Source: Escherichia coli
Lineage (GTDB): Bacteria; Pseudomonadota; Gammaproteobacteria; Enterobacterales; Enterobacteriaceae
Length of the DNA: 64,000 nt
Strand: one strand, 5' to 3'
Assembly (NCBI RefSeq): GCF_003334385.1
Contig: NZ_QOWN01000001.1
Shown: piece by piece, positions 9,001 through 12,000 of the stretch
How the letters are laid out: each line of letters begins with the position of its first letter
Numbering within the stretch: position 1 is the first letter of the stretch
Position numbers: made by a program

Positions 9001-12000
9001 TTGCATATAACGTTGTCGCAGAGCCTATTTTTTCAGGCATCAAGTCCTGAAAATAAAGCATGCCGATACCACAGAGAATACCAAGGAAGATGGCATTAAG
9101 AATTTGCAATTCCAGCTCAACCGCCGGAGTCGTCGCCATGAGTACGCTGGCGTAAAAACACATTCCACTCACGATAGCAATGAGCATTAATAGTCGCTTG
9201 CCAATACGTTTCATGTAATAGCCTGCGATTAACATCATCGGAATTTCCAGACCGGCAGCGATACCAATCATTTCTCCAGCCAGTTTATCGGTTAGATGCA
9301 GTTCATCAATAATAAATAGCGGCATATTTATCATGTAGAGATTATTCGCCGCCCACATCATTGAACAGACCACAAAAAGTAGCCGCGTATCCCGCTTCCT
9401 GTGGGTGGAGGGTAAAATTTCTACGGGTTGGGTAACGACAGGAATATTTCTTTGTATTGATGGCAAAAACAACCAGACTATCAGTCCGCAAACAACAAAT
9501 GCGATGGCAGCGGTGAGATACATCACTTTAAAACTAAATCCCATTGCCAGTTCATAAGCGAGCGGTGGCCCGATAACCCAGGCAAGCGAGATCTGAGCAC
9601 GTAAAAATGTACTGAACATGACCGTCTCACGGCCTGTTCTGTCGGCGTGTTCACGGGCGAGGGCGAACATTTGCGGGTTTGCGGTGGAAGCAAAACTACT
9701 CAGAAGTACGCCCGTTGAGAGGAGAATGAAGTAGTTGCGATTCCACGCAAAAAGCGTGCAGGCCAGCACTCCAAATAAGCAACATAGCAGAATCAGTAAC
9801 TTACGGTCGCCTTGTTTATCGGAGTGCCTTGCCAGAAATTGACTGACCAGAATTCCCATAATAGCGCTACCGGTGAAGAAAAAACCTACCATTATAGGAC
9901 GGGCTTTCAGTTCATCTGCGAGGAATATACTTAGGGTAGGAGTCTGAAGAGCGCCCGCAATACCCGTCAGAAAGGCGACAAGTAAAAATGCCGCGGCAGT
10001 GAGATCAAGTATTTTTGATGGAGTGGTAGCCGTTTTTTGCATTCTTCTGAATCACCGGGCGAAAAAATATAACTGAGTTACAAATAAGTACCAGTCGAAT
10101 GAGTATTGTATTAAGAATTTTTGAGTATCGCTGATACAACCAGAAAGCAATGCTAGCGCAATATTATAGGGCCAGCAATTGAGATTATTAGTAAAAGCAT
10201 GTTAAGAATTAATTACCGAATTTATATATTAATTATAGTAAGGCAATGAGCTATTTTTGATAGTAAAAATAAAACAAGTTGATTTGATATATTAAATGAA
10301 CAAATTAATCTTGATGGCAGTCTGATTATTGGTGAAGTTTATAGTCAGTTTTTTTCGCCAGCGGTTAAAGAAATAGAATAGTCGTATAAAAAAGGGTGTT
10401 CTGGGGCGAGTAAAACAACATCTTCACCTTAATGGCGATACAGTTGGCTGAGAGTCAGCAGGGGGGCAAATCACCTGCAAATAAACACGGCGCATACTGG
10501 CGTGAATATCGCGGATGCGTTCGAGGACAGAAGAACCGACAGGCGGATTCTTCAGCCGCTCATCGTCCATCACAAAACCTTAGACCAGGTATTCCTGAAG
10601 CCGATTGAATATTGAGCAGTAGAAAATATCTGGATTGACAGTATTACAAGGGGTTGGAGAACGTCAGGAGAGGCATTTTGGCGGAAGATCACAGGAGTCG
10701 AATATAAGTATTAATGCATTGATCTTAAATAATTTGTATGTGTTGGATAAATGAGTAACCCCCATAAGAACCCCCAAATGATTTTGCATGAAGGAATGAA
10801 GCTAAAATACATAATTGAATCAATTCTTAGTACTCTATTGTGAAGGTAACATTTCCGGATAGTGTCTGGCTATAATATCATTTAGCCGATCAACCAGTTC
10901 TGGTTTCCTGAACGTGATGTGCGCGGAGCCCTTCTTAAAGTATCTGATGCTGAACATTTCATCTTCATAGCACTCTTTACCCTGAACAGACCGGATGTGC
11001 TCATCCAGATGAATAGTGATGTTTTCCCGGTTGTCGGGGATCGGTTTGCCGCTGAACAGATGCAGCATTCTTTACAGGTCGGCAAGTCGATCGGCCTGTG
11101 GGCCGTTGTTCAGATGAAATCCCCATCTGTCCCACCTCACCAGATTGTTGACGATAATTTTACTGCCAAATTTACAGGGTGAATTGTTTTTGTAATTCCA
11201 GCTCAGTCCCCTGAAAACATTAATTACCCCTCGCTCAAACACCTCATCCTTATTCTGGTGCAGTTGTTCAAATGTGCTCAGAATGTTCGCTTCACTGATT
11301 TCCGGAAAATTATCGTACTCCAGTGACCGGTACCATGTATCACGGGCCTGCGCATCCATTAATGACAGCATCCCGGAACGTTGCATCAGGTCACGCCAGA
11401 TTTCGCGGTCAAGGTTGCGGGTGATGGCTTTCATTGCTGTTTCAGGTTTCTCCATGAGCCAGCATCCGCAGCGAAAATTCTGTTTCATCGCCCAGTCCCG
11501 TGCGCTTTTACCACCAATGCTTTTTGTCAGTACTGAGATTTCAGTCAGTTGCCGGATAAGCGTTTCGGTTTGTTGCAGTGCTGCATTCCGTACCGTCACA
11601 ACGTGTCGGATACTGGTGGAGCAGATAACGTCCGTATTCCCGGTGACCACTTCCGGATGGGAGATTGTGATGTTTGACATTATCGGTTTCCCTTTTGGTT
11701 TATAAACGAAAACGCCAGCCGTATTCAGGCTGGCGTCAGTGGAATGAAGTCTGGTGAGTAAGGCTCACCGGTTCTGTTGCAGAAGCTGCAGTTGGCGCAG
11801 GGTATGGATATCCTCCCTCGCCTGTTCAATGCAGGGCAGCAGTGCTGCCGAATCCGTTTTATCCTCATCGTTGTCAAAGATAATTCCCGATTCGCAGTCG
11901 ATATTGTCCTGCAGCCACGCAATCAGAATATCCAGTGCTGTTTCCGTGGTTAATGATTTCATGTTGTTCCTGGTTACCAGTTGAAAGTGGGTAAACCCGG

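Follow-up and report, generated by a model that had tools for sequence, protein, structure and literature searches.

A single in-frame stop codon interrupts the DUF4942 gene that ends a pathogenicity island at selC in Escherichia coli

Organization of the selC island and its CP4-type module

The window analysed in this study is a stretch of 64,000 nucleotides from E. coli (contig NZ_QOWN01000001.1, assembly GCF_003334385.1). It contains a pathogenicity island of approximately 49.4 kb, which is bounded by the gene for tRNA-Sec (60028-60122, minus strand) and by a 24-bp repeat of the 3' end of selC. Among the cargo of the island are ireA, pgtABCP, tia, a pap operon with papG-II and a gene for a tyrosine integrase. 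Islands with CP4-type integrases and this yeeP-yeeV module have been described as often being integrated at selC (PMC6174562).

The distal end of the island carries a CP4-type module with genes in the order GTPase, HTH regulator, hypothetical gene, DUF905, DUF932, antirestriction protein, RadC/JAB, DUF987, CbeA, CbtA, DUF5983 and DUF957, followed by a gene for a protein with the DUF4942 domain (Table 1). The gene content typical of such modules was identified from the PGAP and Pfam assignments of identical or nearly identical genes and by comparison to CP4-57 of strain K-12; the Pfam families were taken from the corresponding, nearly identical genes at one of the loci described below (L004). 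In the window, the twelve module genes other than that for DUF4942 (GTPase to DUF957) are all intact. A DUF4942 gene is also the last gene after those for CbtA and DUF5983 in Salmonella, in Serratia and in a second E. coli island. Given the terminator-like hairpin in front of it, the DUF4942 gene may be transcribed separately from the toxin-antitoxin module, or by readthrough of the module.

A single further gene is interrupted in the window but intact in strain UPEC132, which is described below; it encodes a phosphoethanolamine transferase (55236-56738, plus strand). It has an in-frame stop at codon 350 (approximately 56283-56285), and its intact UPEC132 counterpart of 500 aa is 96% identical.

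Table 1. Coordinates of the DUF4942 gene, its parts and the neighbouring features in the window
Feature	Coordinates	Strand	Description
24-bp direct repeat of the selC 3' end	10679..10702		Exact match to 60028-60051; distal boundary of the island, 133 bp past the DUF4942 stop
DUF4942 gene (probable pseudogene)	10835..11680	-	281 codons plus natural stop, 846 bp; last gene of the island; one internal stop in single-frame translation
C-terminal remnant ORF	10835..11068	-	77 aa plus stop; start is the internal Met205; about 20 residues invariant across genera
AGA (Arg204)	11069..11071	-	Lone sense codon from the stop to the next ATG; Arg204 nearly invariant in homologues
Premature TAA, codon 203	11072..11074	-	Mutation at window 11074 (A on the plus strand, T on the gene strand); G (GAA, Glu) in intact alleles
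N-terminal fragment ORF	11075..11680	-	202 aa; disordered N-terminus, helical region and first three beta-strands as predicted in the AF2 model
Intrinsic-terminator-like hairpin	11711..11737	-	10 pairs (7 G-C) with T-rich tail; separates the DUF957 gene from the DUF4942 start; from a consensus scan in which such sites are not above shuffle expectation
Intact upstream part of the module	11765..15514	-	DUF957, DUF5983, CbtA toxin, CbeA antitoxin, DUF987, RadC/JAB, antirestriction protein, DUF932; full length, with no internal stops by comparison to the UPEC132 annotation

A premature ochre codon in the DUF4942 gene

Translated in one frame, the minus strand at window positions 10832-11683 gives 202 residues (MSNITISHPE...ADRLADL), a stop, an Arg, a further 77 residues (MLHLFSGKPI...EMLPSQ) and the natural stop. 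The plus strand reads cat tct tta cag at 11066-11077, and the minus strand is thus CTG TAA AGA ATG (Leu202, stop, Arg, Met). An ORF listing presents the gene as two pieces, one of 202 aa (11072..11680, minus strand) and the other of 77 aa (10835..11068, minus strand), which align in frame and end to end with intact homologues of 281 aa. The initial annotation, according to which the two ORFs share a frame and are separated by one stop and one sense codon, was exact on this point, with positions 11069-11074 made up of the AGA and TAA codons.

We compared the gene to two intact alleles that occupy the same position at the end of the island, from strains GN02350 (WP_059331312.1) and EC958 (WP_000065751.1, for which one source gives the name "Aec79"), which are 99.9% and 99.8% identical to the window at the DNA level, respectively. 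Both are annotated as intact genes of 846 bp for proteins of 281 aa. Unlike the window, they have GAA (Glu) at codon 203 and encode a complete protein; GAA was also found at this codon in a metagenome contig (L026) and in Citrobacter freundii (L028). The sole difference between the GN02350 allele and the window over 846 bp is located at nucleotide 607 of the gene, window position 11074. One G-to-T transversion on the gene strand (G607T; C-to-A at window 11074) thus accounts for the lesion; it turned Glu203 (GAA) into an ochre codon (TAA). The EC958 allele shows one further non-synonymous difference from the window, at codon 68.

An in-frame stop that is flanked on both sides by same-frame homology to intact orthologues is the pattern of a nonsense pseudogene. 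Both orthologues and paralogues have a sense codon at position 203, and the stop is thus derived rather than conserved; the alignment column is Glu in 12 of 13 diverse homologues, of which the remaining one is locally frameshifted. The proposal of a recent nonsense mutation, made from the sequence of the window, is hence supported by the comparison to intact homologues that was suggested along with it: an intact allele that matches the window everywhere else has GAA, stops at codon 203 are absent from the homologues, and no carrier of the TAA allele has acquired a change past the stop.

The same comparison bears on suppression or programmed readthrough, by which a full-length protein of 281 aa would still be produced and the gene would be functional. 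The frame is indeed intact past the stop, and the downstream 77 codons contain no further lesions, but the youth of the mutation accounts equally well for the missing downstream decay. The stop is not conserved in the family, and thousands of relatives are single uninterrupted proteins. UAA is the stop codon least prone to readthrough and the most efficiently terminated in E. coli, and ochre suppressors are not normally found in natural isolates. A search for Rfam elements near the stop returned none in the region 9900-13500 at E-values up to 0.1. With a stop that is not conserved and no Rfam family matched in this region, programmed readthrough was rejected; we consider it exceedingly improbable, and the opinion of the initial annotation that it is unlikely was borne out.

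Constraint on the segment beyond the stop

The DUF4942 domain (PF13708) was identified with an E-value of 6.1e-68 in an intact allele that differs from the window at codons 68 and 203, where it covers residues 87-276 and positions 1-190 of the 190 in the model. The stop at residue 203 corresponds approximately to model position 117 of 190, with about 39% of the domain located beyond it. PF13708 is also listed for the fragments of 202 aa and 77 aa, and neither of these ORFs contains the complete, uninterrupted domain.

The homologues from E. coli, E. albertii, Salmonella, Serratia and Citrobacter have lengths of 280-282 aa and identities of 70-90%. In the alignment of these proteins, E203, R204 and M205 are nearly invariant, and approximately 20 positions past residue 203 are invariant. 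An exhaustive search yielded 2,205 clusters at 50% identity, of which the full-length ones are mostly 260-290 aa in size and align through residue 280. Relative to an E. coli paralogue of 83% identity, dN/dS was estimated to be 0.18 upstream of the stop (codons 1-202) and 0.15 downstream of it (codons 204-281). The segment that is removed by the stop is thus constrained in the family, as seen in the invariant residues, the dN/dS ratio and the extent of the alignments.

In an AF2 model that was based on 63 diverse sequences (model mff10b506bfbe; mean pLDDT 86.5), the stop falls within a helix that spans residues 194-210. According to this model, the truncation takes away the rest of this helix, a second helix (221-231), three strands (237-257) and the C-terminal helix (260-273). 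The truncated product is most likely non-functional or unstable, and the gene would have lost its function.

A different outcome would be a split gene, in which translation re-initiates at the ATG two codons further on and the pieces of 202 and 77 aa reassemble into a two-piece protein, or in which the N-terminal helical fragment by itself has a retained or new activity, possibly a dominant-negative one, and the altered form was spread by selection. The TAA-AGA-ATG spacing fits coupling between termination and re-initiation and is sterically possible, Met205 is a conserved internal Met, and the TAA allele persists in several backgrounds, as described below. However, inspection of the sequence by eye revealed no Shine-Dalgarno-like motif at a usable distance upstream of the Met205 ATG. 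No natural two-gene version that is split at this site was observed among the homologues, the short entries being fragments of many different lengths. Also, the break is located inside a predicted helix, and the predicted beta-strands of the AF2 model would be divided between the two pieces. Some re-initiation at this ATG is possible, but we regard a functional split gene or an active fragment as very unlikely.

Occurrence and spread of the TAA allele

A megablast search identified the DUF4942 gene in approximately 3,880 of 5,426 complete E. coli genomes (about 71%); the median is 2 copies per genome and the maximum 8. Genes 100% identical to that in the window were found in strains UPEC132 and N50, and the exact 71-mer that contains the TAA is present in two of the 5,426 genomes. 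Besides the TAA copy, UPEC132 has three further matches to DUF4942. In a larger collection of assemblies, the 202-aa product was recorded on 82 contigs (e.g., from E. coli HVH 31 and HVH 51), as compared to 144 contigs for the immediate intact allele and at least 1000 for the EC958 allele. The truncated product is indexed in 128 blocks, among which are gut metagenomes.

We retrieved 13 loci with the TAA allele from isolates and from human-gut metagenome contigs (L001, L004-L011, L027, L029-L031). All 13 have TAA at codon 203, and their flanks differ. The nine loci that were compared over the whole gene are 100% identical over 846 bp, and the identical block that they have in common extends at least over window positions 10687-12433. 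Outside of this block, the loci are mosaic. Most of them lie in a backbone that has a truncated setC region and is only 95-96% identical to the window in the yicL-nlpA segment. L005 differs in the interior of the island, and in L007 an intact setC is followed by type III secretion genes. The window itself has an intact setC, and its backbone is 100% identical to that of many other E. coli strains.

Since the same TAA allele is located in backbones that are only 95-96% identical in the yicL-nlpA segment, the island or the island end has moved between lineages. These loci show a real, inherited allele that has moved together with the end of the island and now occupies at least four configurations. 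The mutation is young by the same evidence, because no second change past the stop was found in any carrier. The TAA allele is a handy lineage marker for this variant of the selC island.

Differences were also seen at the island border. The island with the TAA allele adjoins an intact setC in the window (8776-10669) and in L007, as compared to a truncated setC region with a hypothetical ORF of 165 aa in UPEC132-like genomes. In B2-like carriers, four adjacent bases in the distal repeat (10684-10687) differ from those in the window.

These data also address the concern that the stop could be a sequencing or assembly error, so that the true codon would be GAA and the gene intact. The stop hangs on a single base, the intact alleles are commoner by the contig counts given above, and very few complete genomes contain the TAA 71-mer. 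Yet the TAA allele is present in independent assemblies from varied projects and samples (UPEC132, N50, HVH isolates, GCA_9640 assemblies, and ENA and JGI metagenomes), its carriers differ in flanks and in island variants, and window position 11074 is located in neither a homopolymer nor a repeat. An error was therefore rejected for the allele as such, on account of the identical allele in many independent assemblies. The initial annotation had named an error at this codon as the finding that would overturn its interpretation; with the allele sequenced independently many times, the likelihood of such an error is negligible.

Other lesions in the DUF4942 gene

Lesions of other types were identified in the same gene. 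In the E. coli metagenome contig L026 (2728-3988), an otherwise intact GAA allele is disrupted 9 nt upstream of codon 203 by an IS3-family element, with an apparent 3-bp duplication of GCC. In C. freundii CFNIH1 (L028, 2594-3947), an IS110-family element is inserted near codon 187 of an otherwise intact GAA allele. The identity of 99.5-99.7% between the CFNIH1 fragments and the E. coli gene implies a recent transfer between genera. Together with a paralogue that is frameshifted in strain HH45, the nonsense mutation and the IS3 and IS110 insertions represent several independent hits on the terminal DUF4942 gene of CP4-type modules. Destruction of the gene by IS elements in other strains suggests that it is dispensable rather than remodelled, which also speaks against the split gene discussed above.

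Different strains carry different single lesions in the CP4-type module. In EC958 and AGR5151 (L002, 2764-2956; L017, 24-216), the DUF4942 gene is intact and the adjacent DUF957 gene is annotated as frameshifted. In GN02350, there is an internal stop in the gene for the YeeU-family antitoxin.

The repeated inactivation of one allele lineage, by the nonsense mutation, the IS3-family insertion in L026 and the IS110-family insertion in CFNIH1, could indicate that loss of DUF4942 was advantageous and that selection explains the spread of the allele, as opposed to neutral decay of a dispensable island gene. The frameshifted paralogue in HH45 and the presence of the TAA allele in at least four configurations are consistent with such a scenario. 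However, in a sample of nine copies taken at even steps down the ranking, seven are intact; selection on the family is purifying, and TAA is the minority allele. The copy numbers per genome provide a simpler account, namely redundancy and relaxed selection on any one copy. A selected loss thus seems unlikely, although somewhat less so than a split gene. The pattern of independent hits fits with individual DUF4942 copies being dispensable, though the family is under purifying selection.

Interpretation

The observations are best explained by one G-to-T transversion that would have inactivated the DUF4942 gene at the distal end of the selC-inserted pathogenicity island. Translation would terminate within a predicted helix, with 202 residues made. 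The gene would then be a pseudogene that is young but heritable, and that has spread together with the end of the island to several backgrounds of both chromosome and island. Based on the sequence comparisons, we infer with high confidence that the terminal DUF4942 gene is an ordinary heritable nonsense pseudogene that has probably lost its function. Within this explanation, finding the allele in at least four configurations might point to hitch-hiking or selection rather than to purely neutral decay.

For annotation purposes, the ORFs at 10835-11068 and 11072-11680 should be presented as one pseudogene and not as two hypothetical proteins. Beyond correct annotation, the importance of the lesion is small; the DUF4942 family itself is very widespread.

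Comparison to known systems

Searches for better-characterised relatives of the DUF4942 protein gave no sequence relative in the PDB, no match among the PADLOC defence families and no meaningful match in NCBIfam, where the lone match (E = 0.022) was spurious. A comparison of the AF2 model to solved structures produced no significant fold match. In the literature, the name DUF4942 occurs in only four papers, once in each, and going by their titles and abstracts none of them is a functional study. The closest proteins of a different architecture are fusions of an N-terminal DUF4942 domain to a methyltransferase, of which PHROG 6263 ("DNA methyltransferase") and two relatives of 467-468 aa, P0213 and P0250, are examples. 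These proteins have PF13708 in common with the island protein (E = 1e-56 to 1e-59) and contain a C-terminal class-I methyltransferase domain, whereas the island protein is a stand-alone protein of 281 aa with no methyltransferase domain. PF05175 was identified in P0250 with an E-value of 2.4e-6 and was not significant in P0213. The C-terminal half of P0213 matches PHROG families of DNA methyltransferases, as does P0250. The methyltransferase-like fusions and the neighbouring antirestriction gene suggest a role for DUF4942 in DNA modification or restriction evasion, which at this stage is speculation.

The K-12 elements CP4-57 (yfjP-ypjF) and CP4-44 (yeeP-yeeV) contain the same families on one strand (GTPase, DUF932, antirestriction protein, RadC/JAB, DUF987, CbeA-family antitoxin and CbtA-family toxin). 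CP4-57 of K-12 ends at ypjF and is without genes for DUF5983, DUF957 and DUF4942, and the DUF932 gene adjoins the antirestriction gene in the window, unlike the gene order in K-12. The window island is located at selC rather than at ssrA, carries pap, ireA, pgt and tia as cargo, and its DUF4942 gene has no counterpart in K-12 CP4-57. The term "CP4-57-like" that had been applied to the module is hence appropriate for the genes of the yfjP-to-ypjF type, but not for the DUF4942 gene or for the site of insertion. The suggestion of ongoing decay is supported in part: the terminal gene has been lost repeatedly, as shown by the IS insertions elsewhere, but the wording is too strong for the module in the window, where the twelve other genes are intact.

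The closest known system is the island of UPEC132, which has the same selC island end and is collinear with the window at 98.9-99.9% identity. Its DUF4942 gene (FE252_RS01730 in NZ_CP040456.1) is 100% identical to that in the window over 846 bp, including the TAA. The two genomes differ in that UPEC132 has a truncated setC region, a yicL-nlpA backbone with 96% identity to that of the window and an extra IS1 inside the island, whereas setC is intact in the window. The pseudogene as such is already known, since RefSeq flags the identical UPEC132 copy, which is labelled by PGAP as a DUF4942 pseudogene with an internal stop.
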